64,000 bases of DNA, taken from the IMG/VR virus record IMGVR_UViG_3300020577_010320; one strand, written 5' to 3'. This document shows positions 5 through 30,048 of the stretch, piece after piece. The number at the start of each line of letters is the position of its first letter. Positions within the stretch are counted from its first letter, which is position 1. The notes under the pieces are model-generated. The model was not told the origin of the DNA. It searched no databases and saw nothing but the letters and a program-made list of their open reading frames with translations. Position numbers and translations under genes: made by a program. Origin of the DNA: a virus.

Positions 5-219
5 TCACCCCTCCCCGTCGTAAGTGAACAGCTCGTTACACCCGCGGTCCGCCGCCATACGATTGATTAAGTCGTCCGGCAGGAGTCTGTACAGTGTCGG
101 GGGTATGTTGACGCCGATCGGCTTCAGGGTGATCCAACCGTAAACTCGGTCGCCGATGTTGAACCACACCGCCACACTACGGCCACAGTAAAACTGCCGG
201 TGATATCTGACGAACACGT
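5..219 (-). CDS. tandem-array small protein, LPG...ELFxYDEEG-tail family
   Basis: ends ...NELFTYDGEG*; GTG/ATG start immediately after upstream stop. Confidence 0.6.
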
Positions 220-503
220 CAGCCCTCCTCGTCGAAAACGAACAGGTCATCGTCGTGGAACACGTCCGCGCCGTTGACGTAGAACTGGCCGTACGTGTCG
301 CCGGGTAGGAGCCTAGACACAGCGAACCACGACTCGTCTGGATCCTCCTTGACGTCCCCGTCACACCCGAAGTCGCGGTACGGCACGTCGTCGACAACGT
401 AGCCGTGCTGGTTGTGTAACACGCGGGCGACGCAGACCAGACTCAGGTCTTGATAGTTGTCCCGCGACCGCCGCACGCCCTTGAAGTGAACAGTACCGAT
501 CAT
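219..503 (-). CDS. tandem-array small protein, LPG...ELFxYDEEG-tail family
   Basis: ends ...LFVFDEEG*; ATG overlaps upstream TGA (GAGGAGGGGTGATGA). Confidence 0.65.
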   Translation of the reverse strand: MIGTVHFKGVRRSRDNYQDLSLVCVARVLHNQHGYVVDDVPYRDFGCDGDVKEDPDESWFAVSRLLPGDTYGQFYVNGADVFHDDDLFVFDEEG

Positions 504-735
504 CACCCCTCCTCGTCGAAAACGAACAGGTAATCGCTCCACGACCCGAAAAGCGTCCCGGACCCGTCTTGGGCGTCCCCCGGCAGGTGCACGATTAGGC
601 GGTTATACGCCTCCGCGTTCCTCAGATTGCTCCCGGGCGGGCGGGTTCGGATGAACTGATCGCCCGAATCGCCGTACACCACGACTACACCGTAGATAGC
701 CCTAGAGCGTCGTACTAGTAGAGTTCGCCCCACGT
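503..735 (-). CDS. tandem-array small protein, LPG...ELFxYDEEG-tail family
   Basis: ends ...YLFVFDEEG*; start overlaps upstream stop. Confidence 0.6.
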
Positions 736-962
736 CAGCCCTCCTCATCGAGGGTGAACAGATCGCCAGGGTCGCTCGGCAGATCCCACCACAAGAAATG
801 CATTTGGCGGTTACGGTAGTAGTCGAACCGCGGATGGCTGTACTGAACCTCCAGCTCCCGGTCCTCGTCGTCACACGGCTGGCACTGGAGGTCCCTGACC
901 GTCGAGACGCGGATGACGTCCTGCGTCCGCTCCACGTGATACACGCGCCACACGTCGGTCAT
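735..962 (-). CDS. tandem-array small protein, LPG...ELFxYDEEG-tail family
   Basis: ends ...WWDLPSDPGDLFTLDEEG*; 75 aa from MTDVW. Confidence 0.65.
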   Translation of the reverse strand: MTDVWRVYHVERTQDVIRVSTVRDLQCQPCDDEDRELEVQYSHPRFDYYRNRQMHFLWWDLPSDPGDLFTLDEEG

Positions 963-1207
963 CACCCATCCTCGTCGAACTCGAACAGTGTGTTGTGTGG
1001 ATAGGTTACGGCTCCGGGCAAGGAGTTCCACACCCTCCTGTCTGAGCGGGTCCGGCCGCACTCGCTCACCCGTCCGGTCGGGACCACTATCACTTCGAAC
1101 CGACCCTCCCACCCATCGTACGTCGTATGGAGCACAGTCTGACCGCACAGGCAGAGCGCTGACAGCAGTTGTCGCTTAACGCAGAATAGTGACACGTTGG
1201 TACGCAC
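962..1207 (-). CDS. tandem-array small protein, LPG...ELFxYDEEG-tail family
   Basis: ends ...WNSLPGAVTYPHNTLFEFDEDG*; TGAGTG junction. Confidence 0.6.
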   Translation of the reverse strand: MRTNVSLFCVKRQLLSALCLCGQTVLHTTYDGWEGRFEVIVVPTGRVSECGRTRSDRRVWNSLPGAVTYPHNTLFEFDEDG

Positions 1208-1453
1208 TCACCCCTCCTTGTCTAGAGTAAAGAGTTCATCGTCGTACGCCTGTCGCCACCTGTACAACCAGCCGCCGGGCAGGAGCTGCCACACGCGGGC
1301 GAGTTCGGGGTCGACCCACGAAATGGAACAGTCGACGTTACAACGCCAACCTCGCAGATGGGTGTCCACTAAGGCCGCCGGCGGGTGGCTGTTTTCCACG
1401 AAGTGCGCGCTGACGCACCGTCCGAACCGACGCATGTGTGAGGTTACACTCAC
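1208..1453 (-). CDS. tandem-array small protein, LPG...ELFxYDEEG-tail family
   Basis: ends ...WQLLPGGWLYRWRQAYDDELFTLDKEG*. Confidence 0.6.
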   Translation of the reverse strand: MSVTSHMRRFGRCVSAHFVENSHPPAALVDTHLRGWRCNVDCSISWVDPELARVWQLLPGGWLYRWRQAYDDELFTLDKEG

Positions 1454-1454
1454 T

Positions 1455-1745
1455 TCACCCCTCCTCGTCGAAGACGAATAGCTCGTTACACTTCCGCGTC
1501 TCTACCTCACACCCACCGGGTAGGTTCAGCCACACGTGTCGCTGCTGACCGGCCTGGTCGCGGTACCGCAGCCAGAACGACCAGACGACGACGCACGGGT
1601 ACTCCCAGCCGGCGTGTACCCCCACCCCCTGGGGGACGTCGTGGTACCTGGAACTCTTGACGACGCTCAGCCGGACGCCGGGTTTGGACCGCCCCGGACC
1701 CCTACGGACGATGTGGGCCGCCCTGTGAACACTAACGTTCGACAC
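1455..1745 (-). CDS. tandem-array small protein, LPG...ELFxYDEEG-tail family
   Basis: ends ...WLNLPGGCEVETRKCNELFVFDEEG*. Confidence 0.6.
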   Translation of the reverse strand: MSNVSVHRAAHIVRRGPGRSKPGVRLSVVKSSRYHDVPQGVGVHAGWEYPCVVVWSFWLRYRDQAGQQRHVWLNLPGGCEVETRKCNELFVFDEEG

Positions 1746-1748
1746 CGA

Positions 1749-2072
1749 TCAGCCCTCCTCGTCGTAAGTGAACAGTTCATCGTCGACGTCTGTCGTCAAC
1801 ACGGACTGGTCTCGGAAGACCCCGCCGCCCGGTAGTAGGTGCCACACGTCGTACAATTGGGCGTCCACGAACACGTCGCGGCTGTAGATGGAGAACTCCG
1901 TCCAGTACAGCGTGACTATCGGGTCGAAACTACCGTCGACCGGTATGTAGTCCGAGAACACACACGCCGCGTCATGGCCGACCGTGATCTCGCGCGCCTG
2001 TTCCCAGCCGCGGTCGGTGCAGCTCTCCGCGTAGAAGTAGAACTGCAGCGAGGTGCGAAACACGTAGGGCAT
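1749..2072 (-). CDS. tandem-array small protein, LPG...ELFxYDEEG-tail family
   Basis: ends ...WHLLPGGGVFRDQSVLTTDVDDELFTYDEEG*; ATG 6 nt after upstream TGA, SD GAGGAGGGG. Confidence 0.65.
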   Translation of the reverse strand: MPYVFRTSLQFYFYAESCTDRGWEQAREITVGHDAACVFSDYIPVDGSFDPIVTLYWTEFSIYSRDVFVDAQLYDVWHLLPGGGVFRDQSVLTTDVDDELFTYDEEG

Positions 2073-2077
2073 CGACG

Positions 2078-2398
2078 TCACCCCTCCTCGTCGAGGACGA
2101 ACAACTCGTCGAAGGGTCCCTCGCATTGTGAGTCCGAGTCGCAGCCTCCCGGCAGAAGAGCCCAAACCCGGCACAGCTCGGCGCAAACGAAGTCGCCAGT
2201 CCGAACGACGAGATACCGCTTCACCATCGCACACGCTCCGTAGGCGCAGACCTCGCGGTACATAGTACCGTAACGCCAGAACCCCTCTACGATGTCGTGC
2301 GGATAGTGCAGTTCTGCGTCAGGGTAGGCGAAAGGCGCCATCTCATTGTAGTAGCACCAACAGTCGACGTCGGATCGACCGACCGTACAGCAGGTCAT
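2078..2398 (-). CDS. tandem-array small protein, LPG...ELFxYDEEG-tail family
   Basis: ends ...WALLPGGCDSDSQCEGPFDELFVLDEEG*; GTGATGA junction. Confidence 0.65.
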   Translation of the reverse strand: MTCCTVGRSDVDCWCYYNEMAPFAYPDAELHYPHDIVEGFWRYGTMYREVCAYGACAMVKRYLVVRTGDFVCAELCRVWALLPGGCDSDSQCEGPFDELFVLDEEG

Positions 2399-2649
2399 CA
2401 CCCCTCCTCGTCATAGACAAACAATTCCCCGCGCATGGATCCACGACACATCCGAGGCAGCAGGTTGAGCAGTACACCGGTCGGCGAAGAGCGAAACTCC
2501 TTACGCACACACTCCTGGCTCGAAAGGGGTAAATACACGAGGTGATCGCTCGTCGCCATGTGAATGCGAGTCGTCTGGCCGAACTTTTTGTAGCAGACGT
2601 AGACTCCGATCGAGAACCGTCCCCGGCCCAAGTCGAACGGCTTATTCAT
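2398..2649 (-). CDS. tandem-array small protein, LPG...ELFxYDEEG-tail family
   Basis: ends ...LNLLPRMCRGSMRGELFVYDEEG*. Confidence 0.6.
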   Translation of the reverse strand: MNKPFDLGRGRFSIGVYVCYKKFGQTTRIHMATSDHLVYLPLSSQECVRKEFRSSPTGVLLNLLPRMCRGSMRGELFVYDEEG

Positions 2650-2858
2650 CACCCCTCCTCGTCGTGAACGTAAAGGTCGGCGTACCCAGGCATCAAGCGC
2701 CACATGACGTGGTCGGCGAGTCTGTTGAGTGACACGTCGATTACATACGCTACGCACCGCGTGTCTGGCGGGCACTCACCGGCGACGGAGTCTATAACGC
2801 CACCACGGTGCCCCCGTGTGTGGACGAATCTGATCAAGACGTGGTAACGCACGGTCAC
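2649..2858 (-). CDS. tandem-array small protein, LPG...ELFxYDEEG-tail family
   Basis: ends ...WRLMPGYADLYVHDEEG*. Confidence 0.6.
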   Translation of the reverse strand: MTVRYHVLIRFVHTRGHRGGVIDSVAGECPPDTRCVAYVIDVSLNRLADHVMWRLMPGYADLYVHDEEG

Positions 2859-3145
2859 CCCTCCTCGTCGAACACGAACAACTCTCGGAGCGTGTCCCGG
2901 TCCCAGTTCGGCCTAACGCCGCCTGGCAGGTTCAGCCACACGCGTTGGTCGTCTGGGTACACGCACTGCAGCGTAGTAAGTATTTGGGGCTCGCAGTCGA
3001 TAGATGCGTCCGGGTGACGGTGTACAGCCCAGTAGATCGGTTCAACGGGTATCGTCGATGCGAACGCCGCAACCTCGACGTAGTCCGGGGTGACTACGAT
3101 TACTCGTCGCATATAACGGCGGAGTAGGTAGTTGTACACGGTCAC
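2855..3145 (-). CDS. tandem-array small protein, LPG...ELFxYDEEG-tail family
   Basis: ends ...WLNLPGGVRPNWDRDTLRELFVFDEEG*. Confidence 0.6.
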   Translation of the reverse strand: MTVYNYLLRRYMRRVIVVTPDYVEVAAFASTIPVEPIYWAVHRHPDASIDCEPQILTTLQCVYPDDQRVWLNLPGGVRPNWDRDTLRELFVFDEEG

Positions 3146-3396
3146 CCCTCCTCGTCGTGGATGTACAACTCGTTCTCGTACACACCGTGCCGGCGAACGC
3201 CTGCAGCACCTGGCAGCTTCGCGTACCACCCCACCGGCGTTTGGGGTGTACCGAGGAAGCGGTTGATGTGCGTCTTGATGAGACGCCTCCCGTGTGCGTA
3301 CGTCCAAAACGCACCCAGCTCATATGCGTCTACGTGGATCACGTCCGTGTAGTATTCGCGCGAGGGGCCCCGGCTCACGACGAGCATCAGCTTCAT
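3142..3396 (-). CDS. tandem-array small protein, LPG...ELFxYDEEG-tail family
   Basis: ends ...WYAKLPGAAGVRRHGVYENELYIHDEEG*; ATGA overlap with upstream non-family gene. Confidence 0.6.
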   Translation of the reverse strand: MKLMLVVSRGPSREYYTDVIHVDAYELGAFWTYAHGRRLIKTHINRFLGTPQTPVGWYAKLPGAAGVRRHGVYENELYIHDEEG

Positions 3397-3650
3397 ACAT
3401 CCTCCAGGTCGACGCCGTCCCACAGCTCCTTGACGTCCACCGAGAACACCCCGGAGACGCCGGTGATCGCAGCCACGTGCGCCATGTCCGCCCGCCCGTG
3501 AACCAGCCCGCAGTCCAGCACCTCGTCGACCGTCATGCCGGCCTTCGTCAGGCGGCTCACGACGCCGGCCATCTTCTCCCGCATGAACGCCGCCTCTACG
3601 AGTACGCGGACGTCCTTGACGTCCCCCGACGCCTTACGCTTCTTCGCCAC
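3393..3650 (-). CDS. hypothetical small protein (non-family insert in array)
   Basis: 85-aa ORF; GTG start with AGGAG 6 nt upstream; no DEEG tail. Confidence 0.5.
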   Translation of the reverse strand: MAKKRKASGDVKDVRVLVEAAFMREKMAGVVSRLTKAGMTVDEVLDCGLVHGRADMAHVAAITGVSGVFSVDVKELWDGVDLEDV

Positions 3651-3660
3651 GGCGACTCCT

Positions 3661-3690
3661 AAAAAGAAAAACCGTCCCGGAGGACGGTGT
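3661..3690 (-). terminator. rho-independent terminator (minus strand)
   Basis: ACCGTCC-tccg-GGACGGT hairpin followed by TTTTTCTTTTT on minus strand, directly after 3729..3947. Confidence 0.6.
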
Positions 3691-3728
3691 GTTCTGCCGC
3701 AACCATAATGACAGTTTGGGGCCGCGTG

Positions 3729-3947
3729 TTAAACGACCCGCACGTACCTACCCCTACGCCCGTCCCAGCACTCGCGGGTGATCGTCAAGCTGGCCCCGCC
3801 CTTGACCAGCCGTCTGAGCAACTCCTCGGCGTCAGCCTTGGACGCCTGCGCCTCGCCGTTGGCGGGGAATCGGTAATCGGCCCCGGTACGGTCCTTGCCG
3901 TGGACGACCCACCGGTCCGGTAGGCTCACCTCGTTGTGCTTAGCCAT
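3729..3947 (-). CDS. hypothetical small protein (non-family insert)
   Basis: 72-aa ORF MAKHNEVSLPDRW...; followed by terminator. Confidence 0.5.
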   Translation of the reverse strand: MAKHNEVSLPDRWVVHGKDRTGADYRFPANGEAQASKADAEELLRRLVKGGASLTITRECWDGRRGRYVRVV

Positions 3948-3950
3948 CGC

Positions 3951-4168
3951 TCACCCTTCTTCGTCCCATTCGAACAGTGTGAACCCGGTCGGCATTTTCA
4001 GCCACACGGCGGTCCACTCCCACTGACGCCTGCCGCCGTCGATTATGGTTATGCGGTTCGTACGGTTGCAGTACAGCGGGCGTTCTAGACTACACCAGTA
4101 CCCGTCCACACTCGCCGAGATCGAGTGCGGGGTGTTCGGGTACTCTACGTGCCAGAGCCGCGTCAAGT
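3951..4168 (-). CDS. tandem-array small protein, LPG...ELFxYDEEG-tail family
   Basis: ends ...WLKMPTGFTLFEWDEEG*. Confidence 0.55.
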
Positions 4169-4371
4169 CAACCCTCCTCGTCCAATACGAACAGCTCACC
4201 GGGGCGTTCTGGACTCCACCCGGGAAGACGGTACCACAAGTGTTGGTCGAAGTACTTCGCTGTGCGGAAATTGAACCCCACAGTAAGGGCCACGTGACTG
4301 TCCTGCACGCACGACGGGCGCGACGCCCGCAACTCAAACGCGCACCAGTACCGCTCGATATTGCAAAACAT
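4168..4371 (-). CDS. tandem-array small protein, LPG...ELFxYDEEG-tail family
   Basis: 67 aa MFCNIERYW...WYRLPGWSPERPGELFVLDEEG*; length matches overlap-start. Confidence 0.65.
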   Translation of the reverse strand: MFCNIERYWCAFELRASRPSCVQDSHVALTVGFNFRTAKYFDQHLWYRLPGWSPERPGELFVLDEEG

Positions 4372-4595
4372 CACCCCTCCGCGTCCCAAGTGAACAGGTC
4401 GCCGTAGTTTGGCAGGCTGGTCCACACGACCACCCAGGACTGAACCCAGGATCCTTCGATAATACTCCTACGGAATACGTCTAACGCGTCCAAGTCACGA
4501 AACACTACCGGCACCGGTGAAGTGTACGGTTTGGGGATGAACGCGCACCACCCGACGTGGTAGGCGTTGTAAAACTTGATTAGGCGGCTACACAC
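4371..4595 (-). CDS. tandem-array small protein, LPG...ELFxYDEEG-tail family
   Basis: ends ...WTSLPNYGDLFTWDAEG*. Confidence 0.6.
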   Translation of the reverse strand: MCSRLIKFYNAYHVGWCAFIPKPYTSPVPVVFRDLDALDVFRRSIIEGSWVQSWVVVWTSLPNYGDLFTWDAEG

Positions 4596-4598
4596 GGT

Positions 4599-4790
4599 TC
4601 AGCCATCCTCGTCCAATACGAACAACTCACTAATCCACCGCTTCGTCCACCCTGGTAGTGAGCGCCACAAGAGCTGGTCGTTCGCGTTCGAATTCAGGTA
4701 GCGAAAGTCAAGTCCAACAACGTCAAAACAGTGACCGTTGCGGTCCGCCAGGGGGCAACAATCGCAGTTCCGTGACATGTAACACACCAT
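4599..4790 (-). CDS. tandem-array small protein, LPG...ELFxYDEEG-tail family
   Basis: 63 aa MVCYMS...WRSLPGWTKRWISELFVLDEDG*. Confidence 0.65.
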   Translation of the reverse strand: MVCYMSRNCDCCPLADRNGHCFDVVGLDFRYLNSNANDQLLWRSLPGWTKRWISELFVLDEDG

Positions 4791-5047
4791 CACCCCTCCC
4801 AGTCGTAAACGAACAGTTCCGCCTCGTCCCCCCATCGGTCGAGGTAGTCGAACCCGCTGCCGCCGGGGAGAGACGTCCATACGCGCAAGAACTCACCCGG
4901 ATGGGCCCACTCTCCGCCCACGACCGTAGTACGGAGGCGACCGTAAAACCCCGTCGGGAGGAGTGTCACTTCGTGCACCAGAGCCACATACCAGTTACCC
5001 ACGTCGGGCGTGTAGTGGCGCTCCACGTATTCGAAGACGCGGGCCAT
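4790..5047 (-). CDS. tandem-array small protein, LPG...ELFxYDEEG-tail family
   Basis: ends ...WTSLPGGSGFDYLDRWGDEAELFVYDWEG*. Confidence 0.6.
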   Translation of the reverse strand: MARVFEYVERHYTPDVGNWYVALVHEVTLLPTGFYGRLRTTVVGGEWAHPGEFLRVWTSLPGGSGFDYLDRWGDEAELFVYDWEG

Positions 5048-5286
5048 CACCCTTCCTCATCGAGTACGAACAGTTCCCGTAAGTCTCTGAACCCAGGCAG
5101 GTTCCAATACAAGTCGTCAGTCCAACCGTCGTCGTCGAATCTACAGTTAGCCACAGACTCGAGGCTGACGAGAAACGTTATCGGCTGCGAGTGTCCGAAC
5201 GCGGACACCCGGAACAACACGCCCACATTTGCGTACCCGCCGGCGCAACGGCGTAAGTCCTCCACTACGGCTGGGAGCAGAGTCAT
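5047..5286 (-). CDS. tandem-array small protein, LPG...ELFxYDEEG-tail family
   Basis: ends ...WNLPGFRDLRELFVLDEEG*. Confidence 0.6.
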   Translation of the reverse strand: MTLLPAVVEDLRRCAGGYANVGVLFRVSAFGHSQPITFLVSLESVANCRFDDDGWTDDLYWNLPGFRDLRELFVLDEEG

Positions 5287-5588
5287 CATCCCTCCTCATC
5301 GAGTACGAACAAAGAAGCGTGTTGCGGCGAACAGGCGACGCCGCCCGGCAGCATGTGCCACAACTTCGTGTCTTCATACGCCTCCGCCGGCTCGGATAAA
5401 TCCTCCGAGAGAAGCCCTTTGGGAGTCACCACCCTGCGCCACCCGACGTAGCCCGAACTGCGGACCACTCTGTACACCCCGGCGCCTCGCGCCAGCGGGC
5501 ACGTCGTCACGACCAGGTGCCACTCGTACCACGCCGGGTTCGGTCTGTCGACGGCGACGTGACGGTAGTCGTAGGGCCACTGCACCAC
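5286..5588 (-). CDS. tandem-array small protein, LPG...ELFxYDEEG-tail family
   Basis: ends ...WHMLPGGVACSPQHASLFVLDEEG*. Confidence 0.6.
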   Translation of the reverse strand: MVQWPYDYRHVAVDRPNPAWYEWHLVVTTCPLARGAGVYRVVRSSGYVGWRRVVTPKGLLSEDLSEPAEAYEDTKLWHMLPGGVACSPQHASLFVLDEEG

Positions 5589-5819
5589 TCACCCCTCCTC
5601 GTCGTAAGTGAACAACTCGTCAGGGCGGGACGGGCGCCAACCCGGTAACGCCCGCCACAAACGATGCGACTCCGGACTCCAACCCGCACGACCCTCGTCG
5701 CTGCGATCGAGCGCGGCGACGACGCCGCCCAGGACAATGACGTCCTCCATGTCAATGCGGTGCCCGTCGGCCCGGTAGACGTACCAATGCGACGAGCCGC
5801 GTTCCATACGTTTGACCAT
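5589..5819 (-). CDS. tandem-array small protein, LPG...ELFxYDEEG-tail family
   Basis: ends ...WRALPGWRPSRPDELFTYDEEG*. Confidence 0.6.
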   Translation of the reverse strand: MVKRMERGSSHWYVYRADGHRIDMEDVIVLGGVVAALDRSDEGRAGWSPESHRLWRALPGWRPSRPDELFTYDEEG

Positions 5820-6019
5820 CACCCCTCCGCGTCGAAGACGAACAGCTCGTCCAGGGCGTCAAAACTCCAACCCGGTAACAGCGACCACAGCTCGCCCCGG
5901 GTTGCGGTATAACCCCACCGGACGTGCGGCGGGAAGATGATGAGGGCGAACCTGGAATCATCGAACGAATCGATCAGGCGAACCGAACGCATCGTTCGTT
6001 CCATGTAGTACGGGGTCAT
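5819..6019 (-). CDS. tandem-array small protein, LPG...ELFxYDEEG-tail family
   Basis: ends ...WSLLPGWSFDALDELFVFDAEG*. Confidence 0.6.
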   Translation of the reverse strand: MTPYYMERTMRSVRLIDSFDDSRFALIIFPPHVRWGYTATRGELWSLLPGWSFDALDELFVFDAEG

Positions 6020-6216
6020 CACCCCTCCCCGTCGAACTGATACAACTCCGCATAGTTCGGCATCGAGTCCCACACGTTACTAGCCGTGTACCTCTCCGTG
6101 TACACACTCAACGTCCGCCCGCGGTGCGGGACGTCGCCGTTGTACGCCGTGACCAAGATGATCCGCCCGCCGGCGTCGCTGCGGCGGGCGGTGCAAACGA
6201 GCTCCGTCGTAACCAT
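6019..6216 (-). CDS. tandem-array small protein, LPG...ELFxYDEEG-tail family
   Basis: ends ...WDSMPNYAELYQFDGEG*. Confidence 0.55.
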   Translation of the reverse strand: MVTTELVCTARRSDAGGRIILVTAYNGDVPHRGRTLSVYTERYTASNVWDSMPNYAELYQFDGEG

Positions 6217-6410
6217 CACCCCTCCTCGTCGCAAATGAACAAGTCACTAAGAGGATACAGACGCCAACCCGGTAAAAGCGACCACAGCACCTTATCTCTG
6301 GAGTACGCGTCCATGAGAGACGGGTACTGACGCCTGACCGAATCGACGCGTCCACACTGGTAACAGCACACCACGTAACCGTCACGCTCACGCGTCATGT
6401 ACTGTAGCAT
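6216..6410 (-). CDS. tandem-array small protein, LPG...ELFxYDEEG-tail family
   Basis: ends ...WSLLPGWRLYPLSDLFICDEEG*. Confidence 0.6.
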   Translation of the reverse strand: MLQYMTRERDGYVVCCYQCGRVDSVRRQYPSLMDAYSRDKVLWSLLPGWRLYPLSDLFICDEEG

Positions 6411-6619
6411 CACCCCTCCCCATCGAACACGAACAACTCGTCACAAGTTCCACCACCTCGGTTGTAGTCGCCCGGCAGGTTTTCCCACCAGACGGGGTAG
6501 TCCGGCAAGTGCGGGTAATACACTACGTCGACCTCCGCCAAACCCACGTACAACTCGACGCGCGGGGATGCTGACACGGAAACGTCGTAACACCTAACAA
6601 GGTCTTTGAATTGTCGCAT
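6410..6619 (-). CDS. tandem-array small protein, LPG...ELFxYDEEG-tail family
   Basis: ends ...WENLPGDYNRGGGTCDELFVFDGEG*. Confidence 0.6.
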   Translation of the reverse strand: MRQFKDLVRCYDVSVSASPRVELYVGLAEVDVVYYPHLPDYPVWWENLPGDYNRGGGTCDELFVFDGEG

Positions 6620-6831
6620 CACCCCTCCTCGTCGTAGGTGTACAGCGACTGGGCGTCGGGCAGAAGACACATCACGCCGCCCACGTCCAACAGTTTTTCG
6701 TTCGGCGCCCACACGACCATCACATCCCCGACCCTACGCCGCCAGTCGCAGTCGCTAATACGCACGACCCAGCCGGACCACCCCATCAACAAGGAGTCCA
6801 GGACCAACTCGCGCTGCAGGCTATACGTCAT
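6619..6831 (-). CDS. tandem-array small protein, LPG...ELFxYDEEG-tail family
   Basis: ends ...LLPDAQSLYTYDEEG*; TAATG overlap with HAD gene stop. Confidence 0.55.
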   Translation of the reverse strand: MTYSLQRELVLDSLLMGWSGWVVRISDCDWRRRVGDVMVVWAPNEKLLDVGGVMCLLPDAQSLYTYDEEG

Positions 6832-7352
6832 TACCTGTCGACCTCGCCGAATCGGGTGGACAGGGCGCACAACTTCTCCTCCACCGCGCGACTAACGGTA
6901 GAGATCGAAACCCAGTCGGACAGGCGGTGCGGCTCCAACGACCAGTGAATGAACGTCCCGCCGCGGGCCTCGAACCCCTCCTTGTGTCGGAGGTCGTCGT
7001 CGATCAGTACGGCCCTCGGGTGGGCGACCTGATACTTCGACACACAGAGCATGAAGTTGTCGCGCAGCTCGGGTCGGTGCTCAGCGACCCAGGCGGTCTT
7101 ACCCTCGAACACACCCCGCCGAGCACCGGGAGCCGACGGGATCTTGGTCAGCAAGAACGCGGACTCGCCGAAGTCTTGATTGACGGACCCGAGCCAGTCG
7201 CGGATTACCGGGACGAGGTACCGGTTGCCCGGAGCCGGCGGTAAGGAGGACCAGAACTTCTTGCTGGTGTACCCCTTGGTCGCCATCCTGTCCTTCAAAC
7301 GCTGGTGAGTGTCGACAAGAACTCCGTCCATGTCGATGTACACGGTGAACAC
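6831..7352 (-). CDS. HAD-superfamily 5'(3')-deoxyribonucleotidase-like hydrolase
   Basis: MFTVYIDMDGVLVD (DxDGV motif I) ... VLIDDDLRHKEGFEARGGTFIHW; 173 aa. Confidence 0.6.
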   Translation of the reverse strand: MFTVYIDMDGVLVDTHQRLKDRMATKGYTSKKFWSSLPPAPGNRYLVPVIRDWLGSVNQDFGESAFLLTKIPSAPGARRGVFEGKTAWVAEHRPELRDNFMLCVSKYQVAHPRAVLIDDDLRHKEGFEARGGTFIHWSLEPHRLSDWVSISTVSRAVEEKLCALSTRFGEVDR

Positions 7353-7874: not shown

Positions 7875-8114
7875 TCATCCTTCCTGGTCATGAGTGTACA
7901 GCTCGTGCGGATCGTCACGACCGCCTGGCAGTAATGCAGCAAAACCTCGAGGTCCGACACCGTAACCGTATTCGAGTGCGCTGGCGACCCGCGGTGGTAC
8001 CCTCCCCACCCTGCCGCCAAGAACCCCAGGCTGGTCGCTGTCGAACCGGCGCACCTCGACTCCGTCGTAGAACCTGCTCATGCCATATGACTTGGACACG
8101 TCATCCCTCTTCAT
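7875..8114 (-). CDS. tandem-array small protein, LPG...ELFxYDEEG-tail family
   Basis: ends ...ALLPGGRDDPHELYTHDQEG*. Confidence 0.55.
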   Translation of the reverse strand: MKRDDVSKSYGMSRFYDGVEVRRFDSDQPGVLGGRVGRVPPRVASALEYGYGVGPRGFAALLPGGRDDPHELYTHDQEG

Positions 8115-11288: not shown

Positions 11289-11294
11289 ACGCGG

Positions 11295-12703: not shown

Positions 12704-12719
12704 GTCAACCTCCTTGTGG

Positions 12720-21516: not shown

Positions 21517-21603
21517 GTTACAGGACCTCCTCCAGCGACACCAACCCTACGCCCTCGCGGTACCGGGTTAGGTAAAACCGACTGACGATACGCCGGGTGG
21601 ACA

Positions 21604-22250: not shown

Positions 22251-22477
22251 CCCTCCTCGTCGTACGTGTAGAGTTCGTCGTCGACGTCGGCTTCCCAGTA
22301 TGCGCCGGGTAGATTACGGTAGAAGTCCGTCGGTTCTACACCTCTTAGCCTATCGAGCCGAACTTCAGAGTGACTCACGAGTGTAAGGCCGGTGCTGGTT
22401 ATGACGATGCGCATGTAAACCACGACGTTGTCGTCATTCCTGACAACACCACTCGTGTAGTACGTAGCGTGCATCAC
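22247..22477 (-). CDS. tandem-array small protein, LPG...ELFxYDEEG-tail family
   Basis: MMHATYYTSGVVRNDDNVVVYMRIVITSTGLTL...ELYTYDEEG*; near-duplicate of next gene. Confidence 0.65.
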   Translation of the reverse strand: MMHATYYTSGVVRNDDNVVVYMRIVITSTGLTLVSHSEVRLDRLRGVEPTDFYRNLPGAYWEADVDDELYTYDEEG

Positions 22478-22707
22478 CCCTCCTCGTCGTATGTGTAGAG
22501 TTCGTCTCTATCGGCACCGGACGCACGATACGCGCCGGGTAACCCACAGCAGACGTCCGGCGTTGCTACACCTCTTAGCCTCTGTAACCAAACGTCCACA
22601 CGACTCGAGAGTGTAAGGCCGGTGCTGGTTATGACGACGCGCATGTAAACCGTGACGCTGTCGTAATCTCTGACAACACCACTCGTGTAGTACGTAGCGT
22701 GCATCAC
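22474..22707 (-). CDS. tandem-array small protein, LPG...ELFxYDEEG-tail family
   Basis: MMHATYYTSGVVRDYDSVTVYMRVVITSTGLTL...ELYTYDEEG*; near-duplicate of previous. Confidence 0.65.
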   Translation of the reverse strand: MMHATYYTSGVVRDYDSVTVYMRVVITSTGLTLSSRVDVWLQRLRGVATPDVCCGLPGAYRASGADRDELYTYDEEG

Positions 22708-22910
22708 CCCTCCTCGTCGTACGCGAACAACTCAAACCTCCTATTCGGGTCCCAGCCGGGCAAGTCGAACCACGCGCGGTCGCTGCTCGATATCGCACTG
22801 TGTCTGCACGTGGCGATAACCGAGCCGAGTGCCGTGCCGAGTGCGTCGTGCAGATGCCACCGGCCGAACATCCGTTCTATCCGGTGTATCTTTACGTGTT
22901 CCACCGTCAC
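22704..22910 (-). CDS. tandem-array small protein, LPG...ELFxYDEEG-tail family
   Basis: ends ...WFDLPGWDPNRRFELFAYDEEG*. Confidence 0.6.
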   Translation of the reverse strand: MTVEHVKIHRIERMFGRWHLHDALGTALGSVIATCRHSAISSSDRAWFDLPGWDPNRRFELFAYDEEG

Positions 22911-23155
22911 CCCTCCTCATCGAACACGAACAACTCATCGACGTTAGCACCACCGGGTAGGTCGGCCCACGTGGTGTACCAGTCCGACAGCCGAGTCTCG
23001 TCCACCCGCCACCACCCCAGGGGGAGTACTGGGTGGAGGTGTCGCTTGTGAGGGATAAAGGCCGCAGACTGTCCGTGTAGCTGAATCTGGTAGTGTACGG
23101 TGACCGTGCCGCTAACTTCGCGCACGACACGAATCACATGGTACTCGGCCGTCAT
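22907..23155 (-). CDS. tandem-array small protein, LPG...ELFxYDEEG-tail family
   Basis: ends ...WADLPGGANVDELFVFDEEG*. Confidence 0.6.
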   Translation of the reverse strand: MTAEYHVIRVVREVSGTVTVHYQIQLHGQSAAFIPHKRHLHPVLPLGWWRVDETRLSDWYTTWADLPGGANVDELFVFDEEG

Positions 23156-23383
23156 TCACCCCTCCGGATCTGGAACGAACAGCTCTAGCGTCCGGTCGAA
23201 CCCCGGACTGTAATACGCCCCACCAGGCAACTTAGACCAGACCCCCCACCGGCTGGTCCGTGCACGATGTATGAGGGTGCTGTACTGTTTTTCGTCGCCG
23301 ATGGGGTGGACGACCATCGTCCAGGTCACGTCGACGCCGTAGTCGCCGCGGTACATGCGGCTTAACGTGAACGTCGCAGTCAT
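23156..23383 (-). CDS. tandem-array small protein, LPG...ELFxYDEEG-tail family
   Basis: ends ...WSKLPGGAYYSPGFDRTLELFVPDPEG*. Confidence 0.55.
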   Translation of the reverse strand: MTATFTLSRMYRGDYGVDVTWTMVVHPIGDEKQYSTLIHRARTSRWGVWSKLPGGAYYSPGFDRTLELFVPDPEG

Positions 23384-23578
23384 TCATCCCTCCTCGTCGT
23401 AGACGAACAATTCATCAAGTTTATTCGGCACCCACCCGGGAAGGAGCCTCCACGTCGAGTCACCACGACAAGGATTCACACCGAAGGCGGTGCAGCCGTC
23501 GATGCACCCGAGACGGTAACCATCGGCGTTTTCCAATCGCCAGACAGCGTGCAATCGCTCGATCGTGCGGAGCATCAC
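23384..23578 (-). CDS. tandem-array small protein, LPG...ELFxYDEEG-tail family
   Basis: ends ...WRLLPGWVPNKLDELFVYDEEG*. Confidence 0.6.
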   Translation of the reverse strand: MMLRTIERLHAVWRLENADGYRLGCIDGCTAFGVNPCRGDSTWRLLPGWVPNKLDELFVYDEEG

Positions 23579-23781
23579 CCCTCCTCATCGTAGACGAATA
23601 GAGTGGACGGCCCCGGCAACCAGTACCAGACACGGTCCGGCTCCCCTATTATAGGGTCCATCAGGAGGCGAAATTCGTTGACCACTGAGTTTACGGCGAC
23701 CGCCACAGTCACGACGCAGTAGCCGGGCCCACGTGTCACTCGTATCACGCGGTGTGAGATGAGCATTAGCGGCCTCAACAC
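23575..23781 (-). CDS. tandem-array small protein, LPG...ELFxYDEEG-tail family
   Basis: ends ...WYWLPGPSTLFVYDEEG*. Confidence 0.6.
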   Translation of the reverse strand: MLRPLMLISHRVIRVTRGPGYCVVTVAVAVNSVVNEFRLLMDPIIGEPDRVWYWLPGPSTLFVYDEEG

Positions 23782-24005
23782 GGGTTAAGGATCTCCGAGA
23801 ACTGTCCGTCAGCCCGGCGGATGAAGACTGTGCCGCCGGCCGTGACCTGTTGGTCGAGATACTGGGCGAACTCCACGAGGCGGTGGAGTTCGGTCGTCAC
23901 AGACGTGTCGGTCAGCACCGCCCGCGCCTCGATCTTCCGGAGCGTGTCGGCCCGGACCATCACAGTCAACTTGACCAGGTCTTCAAGCGGTTCGGCCACG
24001 GTCAT
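23775..24005 (-). CDS. hypothetical small protein (non-family insert)
   Basis: 76 aa MTVAEPLEDLVKL...; ATGA overlap with upstream family gene stop. Confidence 0.45.
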   Translation of the reverse strand: MTVAEPLEDLVKLTVMVRADTLRKIEARAVLTDTSVTTELHRLVEFAQYLDQQVTAGGTVFIRRADGQFSEILNPC

Positions 24006-24208
24006 CCCTCCTCGTCTAAGGTGAACAGGCTGCCGAAGTCGGGCATTTTGTTGAACCACACGTCGTACAGGTCCCGGACCCGGGGGTAGCTCGGGGTCGG
24101 CTCGTTCAGCCTGGTGAACGCGATCAGGGCCGACGGCAGGCGAGGATACCAGAACACCTCCACCACCAGCGCGTTGCCGCCGCGCTTTCGCCACACTGAC
24201 GCAGTCAT
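24002..24208 (-). CDS. tandem-array small protein, LPG...ELFxYDEEG-tail family
   Basis: ends ...WFNKMPDFGSLFTLDEEG*. Confidence 0.6.
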   Translation of the reverse strand: MTASVWRKRGGNALVVEVFWYPRLPSALIAFTRLNEPTPSYPRVRDLYDVWFNKMPDFGSLFTLDEEG

Positions 24209-24436
24209 TCACCCCTCCTCGTCTAAAGTGAACAACTCGGTCATGTCCGGTAGGGCTTTCCACAAGAGAATCATCGTGGCGTCTGACTCATTCGCCACGG
24301 ACGACTCGTAGAACTCGATGTCTTTTCTCCACCGGCGTAGTATTACTATCCGGCGGTAGAGACCGTCACAGCCGTCCGCGTACCCGTAGTCGCGTGTCAT
24401 GTGTACGCCGTCCCAGCTAGGTGCGGACACTGTCAC
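24209..24436 (-). CDS. tandem-array small protein, LPG...ELFxYDEEG-tail family
   Basis: ends ...WKALPDMTELFTLDEEG*. Confidence 0.6.
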   Translation of the reverse strand: MTVSAPSWDGVHMTRDYGYADGCDGLYRRIVILRRWRKDIEFYESSVANESDATMILLWKALPDMTELFTLDEEG

Positions 24437-24654
24437 CCCTCCTGGTCGTGTACGTACAGGTCACGCTCGTCTGGTAACGACCCCCACAGGTCCCTCATCC
24501 GCCAATCCGGGTCCTGAACGGTCAGATGCGGGAACACAAAGTCTCGGTTGGGGCCGACCGCCCAACAAACAGTGTAAACGACGTTGAATCCGTACCCGAC
24601 GTAAGACCGGTCGCGCCAAAGCGTTACGCCGCTGTGCTCGTTAGGTGACGCCAT
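24433..24654 (-). CDS. tandem-array small protein, LPG...ELFxYDEEG-tail family
   Basis: ends ...WGSLPDERDLYVHDQEG*. Confidence 0.6.
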   Translation of the reverse strand: MASPNEHSGVTLWRDRSYVGYGFNVVYTVCWAVGPNRDFVFPHLTVQDPDWRMRDLWGSLPDERDLYVHDQEG

Positions 24655-24901
24655 CACCCCTCCTTGTCGTGGACGAACAGTTCGTCGCCGTTCGGTAACA
24701 TCTCTTGAAACCACCACTGACATAGCTGAAGCATACCGGGTGACGCGTCGTTGCTCGACCACGTGCAGAATTTCACCAGGTTGTCAGTCCAGGCGCGGTC
24801 CGGGTCGGTGTATCGGCACACGATCCGGTACTGTCCGCACGATCCGGCGTCGTCGAAGAACCCTTCGTCGCGGTACATGCTCCAGCTCGTAAACCACACG
24901 T
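24654..24901 (-). CDS. tandem-array small protein, LPG...ELFxYDEEG-tail family
   Basis: ends ...FQEMLPNGDELFVHDKEG*. Confidence 0.55.
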
Positions 24902-25146
24902 CACCCCTCCCGGTCGAGTTTGAACGCGTCGCCCCCGCTCGGCAATAAGCGGAACACTCTGAACGTCTCCCAGACTTTGACCGCCCCACGCCGGTGTAAG
25001 TCGTCCAAGTGGTGGAATCGCATGGTGCTGTGACGCTTGCCGTACCGCACTACGGCCGTGTACTTGAGCATCCCTTCGGACTTAACAGTCTCGGTTGTTA
25101 CTCCGTACCACATGCGCCGGACGCTCTGCGTTCGAGACACGGTCAC
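24901..25146 (-). CDS. tandem-array small protein, degenerate tail
   Basis: ends ...FRLLPSGGDAFKLDREG*. Confidence 0.5.
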   Translation of the reverse strand: MTVSRTQSVRRMWYGVTTETVKSEGMLKYTAVVRYGKRHSTMRFHHLDDLHRRGAVKVWETFRVFRLLPSGGDAFKLDREG

Positions 25147-25412
25147 CCCTCTTCATCGTGAACGAACAGGCCGACGTCGCCAGGCAGAGACAACCACACC
25201 CGCCGGAGCTCCCACACCGCCAGCGTCGGCTTGACGCGAGAAGCGTAAAGATGAGGAAACCCGACGGACGCACAGAGACCGAAGCCCCGACCTGCAGCTT
25301 GATGTAAGCTGACGTCGAATGCGAACGGCCCGCGGCCTTGTATCGCGGTTCGGTTGAAGCGGCGGTAGAACCCGGACAGACCGCGTCTTAGCCTTATAAT
25401 ATGACACGACAT
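25143..25412 (-). CDS. tandem-array small protein, LPG...ELFxYDEEG-tail family
   Basis: ends ...WLSLPGDVGLFVHDEEG*. Confidence 0.6.
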   Translation of the reverse strand: MSCHIIRLRRGLSGFYRRFNRTAIQGRGPFAFDVSLHQAAGRGFGLCASVGFPHLYASRVKPTLAVWELRRVWLSLPGDVGLFVHDEEG

Positions 25413-25415
25413 GGG

Positions 25416-25646
25416 TCACCCCTCCCCGTCCCAGACGAACAGAGTTTTGCCGTTCGGCAGTTTGTTGATGTAGGCGTCGTGCGTCAGCAACCGGAATCTG
25501 TGCCTCCGGCCGCCCTCGTACATCGTCCCGAACCGGGAGAACGCGACGAACGCTGGTGCGGGGCCGTTCGCGAAGTCGTCGATCACGAGGACCCGAAACT
25601 CATACAGGTCACGCTCACGCGCCATGAGGTAGATCACGGCGGTCAC
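25416..25646 (-). CDS. tandem-array small protein, LPG...ELFxYDEEG-tail family
   Basis: ends ...YINKLPNGKTLFVWDGEG*. Confidence 0.6.
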   Translation of the reverse strand: MTAVIYLMARERDLYEFRVLVIDDFANGPAPAFVAFSRFGTMYEGGRRHRFRLLTHDAYINKLPNGKTLFVWDGEG

Positions 25647-25845
25647 CCCTCCTCATCGTAGGTGAACAGGTCGTCGAAGTTGGGCAGCTCGTCGAACAAG
25701 TAGCCGCGGGGGGCTTTCGTCAGGCCGCCGTTTGCGTACGGTAGTGGTGTGACGCGGACACACCACACACAACCCCAACCAGTCATAACGCCGGGCCAGC
25801 TACCGAACCAGAACCGATTCGGCCGCAATCCTAAGTGGGCGGTCA
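25643..25845 (-). CDS. tandem-array small protein, LPG...ELFxYDEEG-tail family (first of block E)
   Basis: MTAHLGLRPNRFWFG...LFDELPNFDDLFTYDEEG*; start ATG 25845 preceded by vestigial unit-end CTGTTCATACGAGGAGGGTCGGTATGA. Confidence 0.6.
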
Positions 25846-25869
25846 TACCGACCCTCCTCGTATGAACAG

Positions 25870-25900: not shown

Positions 25901-25906
25901 CGTGAG

Positions 25907-28635: not shown

Positions 28636-28711
28636 GACACATCCCCTTAGTGTGCGTCGGTCGGCAACGGCGCCTCTCGACAAGTGATAGTGACACGATG
28701 CGCGGCAGAAT

Positions 28712-28957
28712 TCAGCCACCCAGGTGGGCGTACTCGTCGACGTCCAGGACGAACAGGGTTTCGTCGCGCGGGAACCCTGTGTAATTGATGTCCGCGCGCC
28801 ACCGGGTGTCAAGGGGCTGGTACTTAGGCAAGTTGCTCACCACCCTGAACACCCACCTCGGCGGACAGCCGAGGACGCCACACGAAATGTCACCCTCTAA
28901 GCCGCAGGCGCACCCCATGCGGCGGTACACCTCCATGAACCACTTCGGCTTCGACAT
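28712..28957 (-). CDS. tandem-array small protein, degenerate/extended tail
   Basis: ...RDETLFVLDVDEYAHLGG*; start MSKPKW overlapping upstream TGA. Confidence 0.45.
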   Translation of the reverse strand: MSKPKWFMEVYRRMGCACGLEGDISCGVLGCPPRWVFRVVSNLPKYQPLDTRWRADINYTGFPRDETLFVLDVDEYAHLGG

Positions 28958-29183
28958 CAGCCCTCCTCGTCGTAGGTGAACAGCGTAGTCCCGTTCGGTA
29001 ACAAACTGGAGTACACGCCGTTGACCAGGTCGTACCACGTTGTCGCGTAGGTCTCCGGTTTCACCTGTATCTCCGACAGGTCCGCATAAGCGCTGCCGTC
29101 AGTGGCGTACAGATATACCGACATGTAAGCTCTGAGATTTGTGGCTCTACACATGCGGTACTGCGTTGCCTTACGTAGCACGT
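28957..29183 (-). CDS. tandem-array small protein, LPG...ELFxYDEEG-tail family
   Basis: ends ...SSLLPNGTTLFTYDEEG*; identical 15-aa tail to next gene. Confidence 0.6.
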
Positions 29184-29446
29184 CAGCCCTCCTCGTCGTA
29201 GGTGAACAGCGTAGTCCCGTTCGGTAACAGGTGCGAACCCTTACGTCGGCGACCGCGGTCGTTGTAAGACCAGACGTATCGCCCTGGCTCCAGTCGCAAC
29301 CTGACACTTCGCCAGACGCCGTCATAGGCATAGCGTGTGTGTACTTCGCACGCGTTGGCACAGCTCCTGTTGTGCGTCTTGGCCCGCGATACCACGACCG
29401 TTTTACGGCTAGAGAGCGTCGTCCCACGATCCACAGACGTCGTCAT
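29183..29446 (-). CDS. tandem-array small protein, LPG...ELFxYDEEG-tail family
   Basis: ends ...SHLLPNGTTLFTYDEEG*. Confidence 0.6.
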   Translation of the reverse strand: MTTSVDRGTTLSSRKTVVVSRAKTHNRSCANACEVHTRYAYDGVWRSVRLRLEPGRYVWSYNDRGRRRKGSHLLPNGTTLFTYDEEG

Positions 29447-29447
29447 G

Positions 29448-29669
29448 TCAGCCCTCCGCGTCGAGCACGAACAGTTCGCTCAGGCACCCGTCGTCCGCCA
29501 CCTGGCGCGGCAGGCGTTGCAGGATCCGCTTGTACCGCTTGCTACCGCTCTTACCGGCCCCGCGTTGCTTTATCTCCGCCCAGCCGCCGTACTTGTACTC
29601 GACGTACACGCACGGCGGGTTCTTGCGAGTGTCACGAAACACGTCGGTAGTATGACGCTTACCACTCAT
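29448..29669 (-). CDS. tandem-array small protein, LPG...ELFxYDEEG-tail family
   Basis: ends ...LQRLPRQVADDGCLSELFVLDAEG*. Confidence 0.55.
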   Translation of the reverse strand: MSGKRHTTDVFRDTRKNPPCVYVEYKYGGWAEIKQRGAGKSGSKRYKRILQRLPRQVADDGCLSELFVLDAEG

Positions 29670-30048
29670 GTTCCAACCTCGCGGCCTCGGGGATGATGGC
29701 GGGCGTCTCCGCGAACTCGGCGGTGTCGCATACGAACAATTCCTGGCGGTTCGGCAGGAGGTCCCAGACCTGCCAAAAGTCCTTGGGCTTCCCCTTGAGT
29801 CGCTTCGCCTCGGCCTTGGAGATCCCCCACCGGCGGTTCTTAGGTTCGCGCATGGTGGGCGGCGCGAGTACGTAAGCGGCGTCGATGAATGACGCCATAC
29901 ATATCATCCCAGGATGACCACTGTACTCGGTCAGGTAGGACACCTCGACCATCGCCACCTCCCGCGTGCGCGCGTTCTCGTCGGCGAGCATCGGCCGCTT
30001 GGCAAACCGCCGCGCCTCGATGTACCGGCACTCCCGCACAGATTCCAT
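29659..30048 (-). CDS. family member with internal tail motif and C-terminal extension
   Basis: ...WQVWDLLPNRQELFVCDTAEFAETPAIIPEAARLEHEW*; motif internal, no DEEG stop. Confidence 0.5.
   Translation of the reverse strand: MESVRECRYIEARRFAKRPMLADENARTREVAMVEVSYLTEYSGHPGMICMASFIDAAYVLAPPTMREPKNRRWGISKAEAKRLKGKPKDFWQVWDLLPNRQELFVCDTAEFAETPAIIPEAARLEHEW

Follow-up and report, generated by a model that had tools for sequence, protein, structure and literature searches.

The stretch of DNA analyzed here, hereafter the window, comprises 64,000 nucleotides (nt) of the virus record IMGVR_UViG_3300020577_010320. It holds 77 genes of one family, all co-oriented on the minus strand between positions 5 and 30048 and arranged in five blocks. 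They encode small proteins of 58–141 amino acids (aa) with highly variable bodies and a conserved C-terminal tail that ends at the stop codon.

Extent and layout of the array

We translated the window in six frames and collected stop-to-stop segments with a family-type ending. A strict ending (hydrophobic-[DE]-x-[EDK]-G) is found in 68 segments, on the minus strand only (5–29448), and a looser one (L/M/V/I-[FY]-x-x-[DE]-x-[EDK]-G) defines 74 canonical members, likewise on the minus strand (5–29669); there are none in the other five frames and none beyond 30 kb. Three members with a degenerate or extended tail complete the 77. The canonical genes add up to 18.2 kb with a median length of 76.5 aa, and the whole family occupies about 19 kb, or about 30% of the window. 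The original prediction for this DNA had given the same number of genes in the same blocks, and the scan bears it out, but its figures of about 28 kb and nearly half of the window are too large. Nor are the genes strictly consecutive, as it had stated, since five unrelated small genes are interspersed (Table 1).

The 5′ edge of the window is not the end of the array. One contig (L018) reaches 770 bp past position 1 and carries three more members, giving a family total of at least 80 genes (77 in the window and at least three beyond it). The array is no assembly artefact, because the same DNA is recovered at 99.7–100% identity in independent assemblies of several sequencing runs.

Genes within block 1 follow each other with stop/start overlaps of 4 nt or 1 nt. 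In blocks 3, 4, and 5 the first gene lies 20–30 nt after a GC-rich stem-loop with a T-run (Table 1; for block 5 at ~30075–30100), so that each of these blocks starts right behind a terminator-like structure. Sites resembling sigma-70 promoters are not enriched, and none was found at the starts of blocks 3, 4, and 5. Blocks 1 and 2 are separated by an AT-richer non-coding gap of ~520 bp (7353–7874) that contains a hairpin with a 13-bp stem (7696–7727), an inverted (CTT)n/(AAG)n repeat, and four of the six copies of CGTTTAA in the window. This gap may serve as a regulatory region, for instance as a cluster of promoters, or as an origin.

Some members depart from the single-unit plan. The two double-module genes (Table 1) each carry an internal copy of the tail (LPG...DELFVWDEVDGG) in addition to the terminal one, are 40% identical to each other over 117 aligned positions, and look like fusions of two neighboring units after loss of a junction. 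On the minus strand at 21520–21603, a 28-codon open reading frame (ORF), coupled by TGATG to member 21604, opens like a family gene (MSTRRIVSRFYLTRY...) and soon reaches a stop; it may be a decayed family copy.

Table 1. Coordinates of the array blocks, individual members, and other features of the window (E, expect value; pLDDT, predicted local distance difference test; pTM, predicted template modeling score; Ubl, ubiquitin-like).
Feature	Position	Strand	Details
Block 1	5..6870	minus	26 family genes; stop-proximal ends 5, 219, 503 ... 3142 and 3951 ... 6619
Block 2	7875..14106	minus	21 family genes
Block 3	17785..19554	minus	8 family genes; begins ~20 nt past stem-loop with T-run (19574-19597)
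Block 4	21604..25846	minus	16 canonical members and divergent 24901-25152; begins just past stem-loop with T-run (25879-25901)
Block 5	28712..30048	minus	5 members: 3 canonical (28957-29181, 29183-29446, 29448-29669), 2 with extension
Example junction	503..533	minus	...CTG TTC GTT TTC GAC GAG GAG GGG TGA TG = L-F-V-F-D-E-E-G-stop
Double-module members	8340-8744 and 8983-9387	minus	134 aa each; single-module 8741-8986 between them
Modeled member	23387-23575	minus	63 aa; pLDDT 76.5, pTM 0.55
Divergent member	24901-25152	minus	Tail ...LLPSGGDAFKLDREG (...AFKLDREG)
Extended member	28712-28957	minus	...ETLFVLD, then VDEYAHLGG
Extended member	29659-30048	minus	...LLPNRQELFVCD (ELFVCD), then 21 aa
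Non-family small genes in block 1	3393-3650 and 3729-3947		
Non-family genes in block 2	~11295-11555 and ~12188-12703		The former a hydrophobic small protein
Non-family gene in block 4	~23775-24001		
Thg1-like tRNA-His guanylyltransferase	19611-20501		
88-aa ORF	20459-20725	minus	PF04957 ribosome modulation factor, E 8e-5, 23 bits, below the 27.9-bit cut-off
tRNA calls (ARAGORN)	Asn 25907-25991 (85 nt), Met 58931-59000		No tRNA in Rfam gathering-threshold scan
RNA ligase	30314-31501		
SPFH/Band-7 protein beside PspA/IM30-like protein	31577-33209	minus	Pair of membrane-stress type
Papain-family cysteine protease	35804-37276	minus	490 aa; Peptidase_C1 E 2e-53
ThiF-family E1-like enzyme	41729-42487	minus	PF00899 E 1.2e-26; nearest NCBIfam models ThiF, PRTRC ThiF, SAMP E1
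JAMM-motif protein	42503-44047	minus	514 aa, HTHPGSSAQPSSID; Prok-JAB E 0.0011, below cut-off
Cys-rich protein	44126-45733	minus	535 aa, many CxxC pairs
Ubl-like candidate	45809-46108	minus	~99 aa ending ...IVQDGDRVMFTPKKVGGG + 18-aa extension; ThiS/MoaD-like C-terminus by eye, no Pfam match
Beta-prime-C RNA polymerase subunit	55257-57140	minus	627 aa
Fused beta/beta-prime-N RNA polymerase subunit	59037-63410	minus	1457 aa

The conserved tail and the gene junction

Anchored at the stop codon, the canonical members share the consensus [VL]-W-x-x-L-P-(G)-x(4-29)-(E)-L-[FY]-[VT]-[YLFH]-D-(E)-E-G-stop. The Pro is present in 74/74 and is preceded by Leu in 70 and Met in four, with Trp at −3 from that Leu in 42/74. 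Counted back from the stop, position −8 is Leu in 73 members, −7 is Phe (60) or Tyr (14), −4 is Asp in all 74, −2 is Glu (69) or Asp (5), and −1 is Gly in all 74. The spacer from LP to L[FY] varies between 4 and 29 residues (mode 4), and the last 12 residues have a median net charge of −4. The single common C-terminal peptide that had been predicted is thus found in the 74 canonical members, and the other three carry it in degenerate or extended form.

The conserved residues are spelled in many ways. The Leu-Pro pair is encoded by all six Leu and all four Pro codons; Leu −8 by CTG (32), TTG (24), CTC (10), CTA (5), CTT (1), and TTA (1); Glu −9 by GAG (26) and GAA (23); and Asp −4 by GAC (60) and GAT (14). 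Because conserved residues vary synonymously, the tail is evidently translated and under selection at the protein level. A non-coding origin of the tails, which the original prediction had named as a result that would overturn it, is at odds with this conservation of the protein.

The end of the gene is also constrained as nucleic acid. All 74 canonical genes stop at TGA, compared with TAA in 8, TGA in 3, and TAG in 1 of the 12 large genes of the window. The terminal sequence GAC GAG GAG GGN TGA includes a GGAGG Shine-Dalgarno element (GAGGAGGGG) that serves the next gene, and at 47 of the 64 family-to-family junctions the next start overlaps the TGA by 4 nt (GTGA or ATGA, usually then with an in-frame ATG as TGATG); the remaining 17 have a gap of 0–3 nt. 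Codon −3 encodes a variable residue (E 55, G 6, K 5, A 3, Q 2, W, R) yet ends in G in 70/74, and the last base of the final Gly codon follows the type of the downstream start, G with GTG and A with ATG. Because a gene end supplies the ribosome-binding site for its successor, whose start overlaps the stop, each block is evidently built as one translationally coupled polycistronic unit. An Rfam scan gave no match anywhere in the window.

Five members (3951, 7875, 11546, 12720, and 17785) have no closely coupled downstream start. All five have lost the perfect GGAGG (for instance, GAA GAA GGT or GAG GAC GGC), which is absent from only 8 of the other 69, and all five retain D-x-[ED]-G. The two constraints can be separated because uncoupled members drop GGAGG yet keep the peptide: on this evidence selection maintains the junction for translational coupling and acts independently on the C-terminal peptide. 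The internal motif copies of the two double-module and two extended members retain ELFVxD and have lost EEG, and because of this difference the data fit a division in which ELFx-phi-D is a structural element and EEG-stop belongs to the junction.

Coding signature, variable bodies, and predicted fold

GC content at codon positions 1/2/3 is 0.59/0.46/0.76 in the family versus 0.64/0.46/0.87 in the large genes. The third-position signature is tied to the called frame, moves when the sequence is shifted, and extends through the bodies. The bodies contain more V (12.6%), Y (5.4%), W (2.8%), and R (10.3%), and less A and K, than the large genes. No member has a transmembrane-like segment, and secreted or membrane proteins were dropped as candidates on this ground. 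A sortase LPXTG signal was dropped for the same reason and for want of a hydrophobic anchor, and precursors of bacteriocins or of ribosomally synthesized and post-translationally modified peptides were set aside because of the excessive length of the variable part and the placement of the conserved part at the wrong end.

Once the tails are stripped off, detectable similarity between bodies (BLASTP E ≤ 0.01) is confined to 6 of 2701 pairs; identity is 73% in the closest of these and 35–44% in the rest. In four of the six, the two genes lie next to each other or one apart in the array, a pattern such as tandem duplication followed by fast divergence would be expected to leave. Alignments reveal a near-invariant Arg ~7–12 residues from the N-terminus, and 72% of members have phi-x-phi-x-R within their 16 N-terminal residues, compared with 27 ± 5% of shuffled bodies (maximum 42% in 1000 shuffles). 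This is an enrichment of ~9 standard deviations; other 16-residue windows give 17–28%. The predicted lack of relationship among the N-terminal bodies therefore stands for the pairwise comparison but not for this motif, which most members have in common.

Two members were modeled with AlphaFold2, using paralogues as the alignment. The model of 22910–23155 (pLDDT 65, pTM 0.28) has a three-strand meander, a helix over the W-rich segment, and an irregular tail. The better model, of 23387–23575, has strands at residues 2–8 (with the conserved Arg), 11–16, and 19–24, a low-confidence loop, a short helix at 40–43 (W-x-x-L), and a strand at 54–58 that corresponds to ELFVY of the tail, followed by the final D-E-E-G as coil. 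On the question of a common fold, a three-strand meander and then a helix are thus seen in both models, and the tail strand only in 23387–23575. The weaker model found nothing closer than E 2 in a Foldseek search of the PDB, and the better one nothing closer than E 0.28 among the viral predicted structures of BFVD. The predicted ELFVY strand points to the tail as a core element of one fold. By these models, the conserved N- and C-terminal elements would together form the core of a small beta-sheet fold, and the variable middle a surface that differs between members.

Divergence, recombination, and strain variation

In the alignable pairs, ratios of nonsynonymous to synonymous substitution rates (dN/dS; Nei-Gojobori) are 0.2–1.4 in the bodies and 0.12–0.52 in the last 30 codons, from small counts of ~20–40 synonymous sites per pair. 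Three less diverged pairs (body dS 0.12, 0.56, and 1.06) have body dN/dS of 1.39, 1.0, and 1.04, respectively. Between near-identical strains, all three isolated single-nucleotide polymorphisms inside family genes are nonsynonymous. These comparisons indicate that the 30–90 residues between the conserved ends evolve almost freely and differ in length. Purifying selection acts at the protein level on three conserved segments, the N-terminal phi-x-phi-x-R strand, [VL]-W-x2-L-P-(G), and (E)-L-[FY]-x-phi-D.

Gene 11546–11788 differs from its counterparts at loci L002/L003 by a deletion and an insertion of 1 nt each, spaced 10 nt apart, together with substitutions, and its frame is restored. The compensated frameshift rewrites ~4 residues of the spacer, LLPGWFLARAG to LLPGGQWWRAG.

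Nowhere else are the copies identical over so long a stretch as at the junction. Exact in-register matches of at least 20 nt occur in 82 pairs of junctions, involving 35 of 73 junctions, and one pair that joins unrelated bodies shares 47 nt.

Novelty and distribution of the family

Scanned singly, the 74 canonical members matched no family in PHROGs v4, NCBIfam 20, or PADLOC-DB 2; in Pfam-A they gave four different one-member matches (E 0.001–0.07), which we read as noise. The family profile found nothing among PDB sequences better than E 0.29. An exhaustive HMMER search of 1.84 billion representative proteins returned 56 at E ≤ 0.001, of which 43 are encoded exactly in the window, two are near-identical strain variants, and 11 are new proteins with the same tail. 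In word-indexed protein searches the profile retrieved the window's own proteins only. Among these 1.84 billion proteins the family seems confined to this phage and its close relatives. The family had been predicted to be undescribed, and so it appears: there is no match to a Pfam, PHROGs, NCBIfam, or PADLOC family, no PDB or significant fold match, and the hidden Markov model leads to the present phage lineage only and to no known family.

The relatives are represented by contigs of 1–1.7 kb (runs ERR12387326, ERR12387330, and SRR21194279) that consist wholly of abutting family genes. They hold 27 members, 26 of them with TGA, and the motif is as well conserved in these as in the window. Orthologues of window members 3142, 1208, 503, 9901, and 5 are recognizable there at 35–63% amino-acid identity; they keep their relative order and have different genes between them. 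Because ordered orthologues flank different genes, gene content evidently turns over in whole-gene units between related phages. A family this large is invisible to current family databases, and arrays of this kind fragment short-read assemblies, as the short contigs of the relatives illustrate, so similar expansions may be systematically missed.

Searches at the nucleotide level and through neighboring genes added no further array. The DNA pattern of the tail had no match in IMG/VR. A degenerate form gave five and four single matches in metagenome and genome collections, respectively, which we read as chance: eight of the nine lack a family-type ORF end, and one (L008) is a single isolated tail-like ORF end. 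No relatives were found in IMG/VR through the exonuclease, the VWA protein, or the RNA ligase encoded in the window. A distant relative recognized through the exonuclease (53% identity; locus L014, a contig of SRR14194072) carries NT5C-like, Peptidase_C39-like, and methyltransferase genes and has no family member in the 14.9 kb examined of its 25-kb contig. A candidate relative based on Thg1 was rejected as an unrelated jumbo phage of 36% GC that lacks an array. A literature search with strings of the tail motif matched only papers on electroencephalography (EEG), and one with the accessions of the sequencing runs yielded no paper.

Genomic context

The genome has ~62% GC, and all identified genes of the window lie on the minus strand. 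Because the RNA polymerases of the closest GenBank phages, Vibrio phage D69 and the Salmonella ‘orphan’ phage Arash, are only ~28% identical to that encoded here, the genome appears to represent a deep-branching, undescribed lineage of large phages. A megablast search with 30–50 kb of the window against GenBank phages gave no match. The window also encodes an Mre11/SbcD-type exonuclease, a dCTP-deaminase-like protein, and a VWA protein, and by its gene content it is a large-phage-like accessory and early-type region.

An RNA-repair and tRNA theme is apparent in the Thg1-like enzyme, the RNA ligase, and the two ARAGORN tRNA calls. The 88-aa ORF with the sub-threshold match to ribosome modulation factor sits between the Thg1-like gene and block 4. 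The SPFH/PspA pair and the papain-like protease are unusual cargo for a phage.

At 41729–46153 on the minus strand lies a four-part candidate ubiquitin-like conjugation cassette, made up of the ThiF-family enzyme, the JAMM-motif protein, the Cys-rich protein, and the Ubl-like candidate (Table 1). An assignment of the ThiF gene as the tRNA ct6A dehydratase TcdA was rejected (24 bits, versus 66 for ThiF and 47 for SAMP E1). Judged by its predicted genes, the region looks like a phage-encoded conjugation cassette. Ubiquitin-like conjugation cassettes are known mostly as bacterial anti-phage defenses, and one inside a phage merits separate attention.

Interpretation of the array

The explanation we favor, to which we give about an even chance of being correct, is that the array is one novel family of small domains (~60–140 aa, beta-rich, and soluble), massively amplified in tandem as translationally coupled operons and serving as a repertoire for host interaction or counter-defense. 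Under this explanation the array would have grown, and would keep turning over, by unequal homologous recombination between the near-identical 20–47 nt junctions, with each crossover adding or removing an intact, in-frame, already coupled gene. Both growth and whole-gene turnover would follow because unequal recombination at the junction always yields an intact, framed, and expressed gene. The conserved ends would supply the core of the fold, and the nearly freely diverging middle a surface specific to each member. The products could then be binders or inhibitors directed at variable host targets, in host takeover or in counter-defense. This is the weakest step; by analogy with other phage and viral repertoires, a role in host interaction or counter-defense is probable.

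Several observations weigh against this explanation. Functionless ORFs, too, would be expected to show the body dN/dS of about 1 that the least saturated pairs have. The recombination mechanism is deduced from sequence identity and from differences in gene content, and the confidence of the structural models is only moderate (pLDDT 65 and 76.5). The persistence of D-x-[ED]-G where the ribosome-binding site is gone suggests that the free acidic C-terminus has a role of its own, which a structural core leaves unexplained. The assignment to a phage, too, is based on gene content (a multisubunit RNA polymerase akin to phage enzymes, tRNA-repair genes, orientation on one strand, and PHROG matches), and no capsid or terminase gene was recognized in the window.

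The last-named role of the C-terminus leads to an alternative that we think rather unlikely, namely that the tail (W-x2-LPG...ELFxYDEEG-COOH) is a trans-acting recognition signal read by a common machine, with the array as its repertoire of cargo. The machine might be one for virion packaging or ejection, a protease or unfoldase for which the tail is a degron, an export system, or a host hub protein with affinity for acidic-aromatic C-termini. The extreme conservation of the terminal residues (D 74/74, G 74/74, and an acidic residue at −2 in 74/74) is what such a signal would look like, and it extends with equal strength to the 27 members of related phages; the last four residues are modeled as coil, D-x-[ED]-G is kept in the five members with a decayed ribosome-binding site, and the internal proteins of T4, diverse apart from a conserved capsid-targeting sequence, offer a precedent (PMC3012670). 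Yet the tail occurs on no other type of protein in the window, the members have an N-terminal motif in common as well, ELFVY is predicted to be an integral strand, four members tolerate the motif internally, and the ribosome-binding site used by the following gene falls on half of the signal (EEG-stop). The original prediction of a conserved tag on unrelated effectors is accordingly weakened by all but the fourth of these points, with EEG-stop explained in part at the nucleotide level, and retains in its favor the persistence of D-x-[ED]-G in the five uncoupled members. The specific form in which the C-terminal peptide (...L-P-G...E-L-F-x-Y-D-E-E-G-COOH) is an address label for a single machine, so that at least 80 effectors would pass through one pathway, we consider unlikely; candidate machines would be virion loading for co-injection, the phage's E1/JAB ubiquitin-like system, or a host hub. 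If true, the phage would possess an equivalent of those bacterial effector sets that share one secretion signal, and cassette recombination at the very junction that encodes the label would maintain and diversify it.

Quite improbable, in our view, is the converse, that only the DNA or RNA of the junction is conserved, as a self-propagating cassette for coupling and recombination, and that the ORFs are largely functionless passengers kept open to carry ribosomes. Body dN/dS of up to 1.0–1.4, strain differences that are all nonsynonymous, a tolerated compensated frameshift, the invariant TGA, a codon −3 at which the nucleotide and not the amino acid is conserved, and junction identity long enough to recombine would all sit well with it. 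It does not account for the conserved Leu, Pro, Leu, Phe/Tyr, Asp, and Glu, which vary synonymously 10–40 codons upstream, nor for the N-terminal protein motif, the non-random beta-rich composition, the frame-specific third-position GC through the bodies, the consistent fold in the AlphaFold models, or ORFs that remain open across highly diverged copies. The C-terminal Gly of all 74 canonical members, and the presence of a ThiF-family E1-like gene and a JAB-motif protein 12–14 kb away on the same strand, would also allow the family proteins to be substrates of the phage ubiquitin-like machinery, their Gly adenylated by the E1 (41729–42487). This seems to us very improbable: a better candidate partner, the ~99-aa protein ending ...DGDRVMFTPKKVGGG + an 18-aa extension, lies beside the E1; the members end in E-E-G, without Gly-Gly; the modeled order b1-b2-b3-short helix-b4 (at moderate model confidence) is not an obvious beta-grasp; and the Gly codon is fixed in any case by the ribosome-binding site and the start overlap. 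We give almost no credence to an integron-like or diversity-generating cassette system built on a non-coding recombination site or on targeted mutagenesis. Cassette-like variable units separated by a conserved ~30-nt element, and related phages that differ by whole units, do recall such systems, but in all 77 units the conserved element is translated in frame and shows synonymous variation, variation among the units takes the form of changed length and full replacement of sequence and not of substitutions at fixed positions, and neither an integrase nor a reverse transcriptase is among the ~50 window ORFs scanned against Pfam, which come from an incomplete genome.

If the favored explanation of an amplified small-domain family is true, this is among the largest phage paralogue expansions reported, with at least 80 genes and ~30% of a 64-kb stretch. 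It would also show with unusual clarity how a virus builds and keeps a repertoire of hypervariable proteins, in which one short junction is at once structural C-terminus, stop, ribosome-binding site, start, and recombination substrate. For experiments, the array offers a small scaffold of natural origin whose termini are conserved and whose middle varies freely, together with a testable system for the selective pressure behind the diversification, presumably host defenses.

Comparison with known systems

Jumbo phages G and 121Q each carry tandem arrays comprising over 30 closely similar genes of unknown function (PMC5646251; cited in the review PMC13282480). As in those phages, a large phage genome holds a long co-oriented array of copies of one gene, here 77 in the window, and the arrays of G and 121Q have been read, as here, as genome expansion by tandem duplication. 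The likeness is one of description, and the family profile found nothing outside the present lineage. Where the copies in G and 121Q are very similar, only 6 of 2701 pairs are detectably similar here outside the termini; there are at least 80 copies, and each junction combines C-terminal codons, a ribosome-binding site, and an overlapping start.

A mechanism and a selective rationale for such arrays are given by T4, which, under pressure from a host defense, amplifies its counter-defense gene tifA against toxIN by recombination (PMC9391042). There, too, a small phage gene is amplified in tandem. The T4 copies are recent, identical, and of laboratory origin, whereas the bodies described here have diverged beyond recognition in an array that is ancient and stably structured.

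The internal proteins of T4 are highly diverse inhibitors of defense, their diversity answering that of the host nucleases they counter, and have only a short conserved capsid-targeting sequence in common (PMC3012670). Like the present family, they are small phage proteins of great diversity with a short conserved peptide at one end, but they number a handful per phage, against ~80 here. The T4 capsid-targeting sequence is N-terminal, ~10 residues long, and removed by the prohead protease. In the present family the main conserved part is C-terminal, is predicted to lie within the fold, and overlaps with the signals for translating the gene that follows; the N-terminal phi-x-phi-x-R (residues 5–15) does not resemble the capsid-targeting sequence, and no prohead protease was identified in the window.

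Among eukaryotic viruses, the multigene families of African swine fever virus and the terminal gene families of poxviruses are lineage-specific tandem paralogues that undergo rapid gain, loss, and divergence and are thought to interact with the host. Their genes are monocistronic and encode larger proteins, without coupling or such a shared terminal peptide. Tandem paralogue expansion in large phages is thus of a known kind; what is new here is its scale, the divergence of the copies, the bipartite conserved termini, and a C-terminus fused to the translation signals of the next gene.

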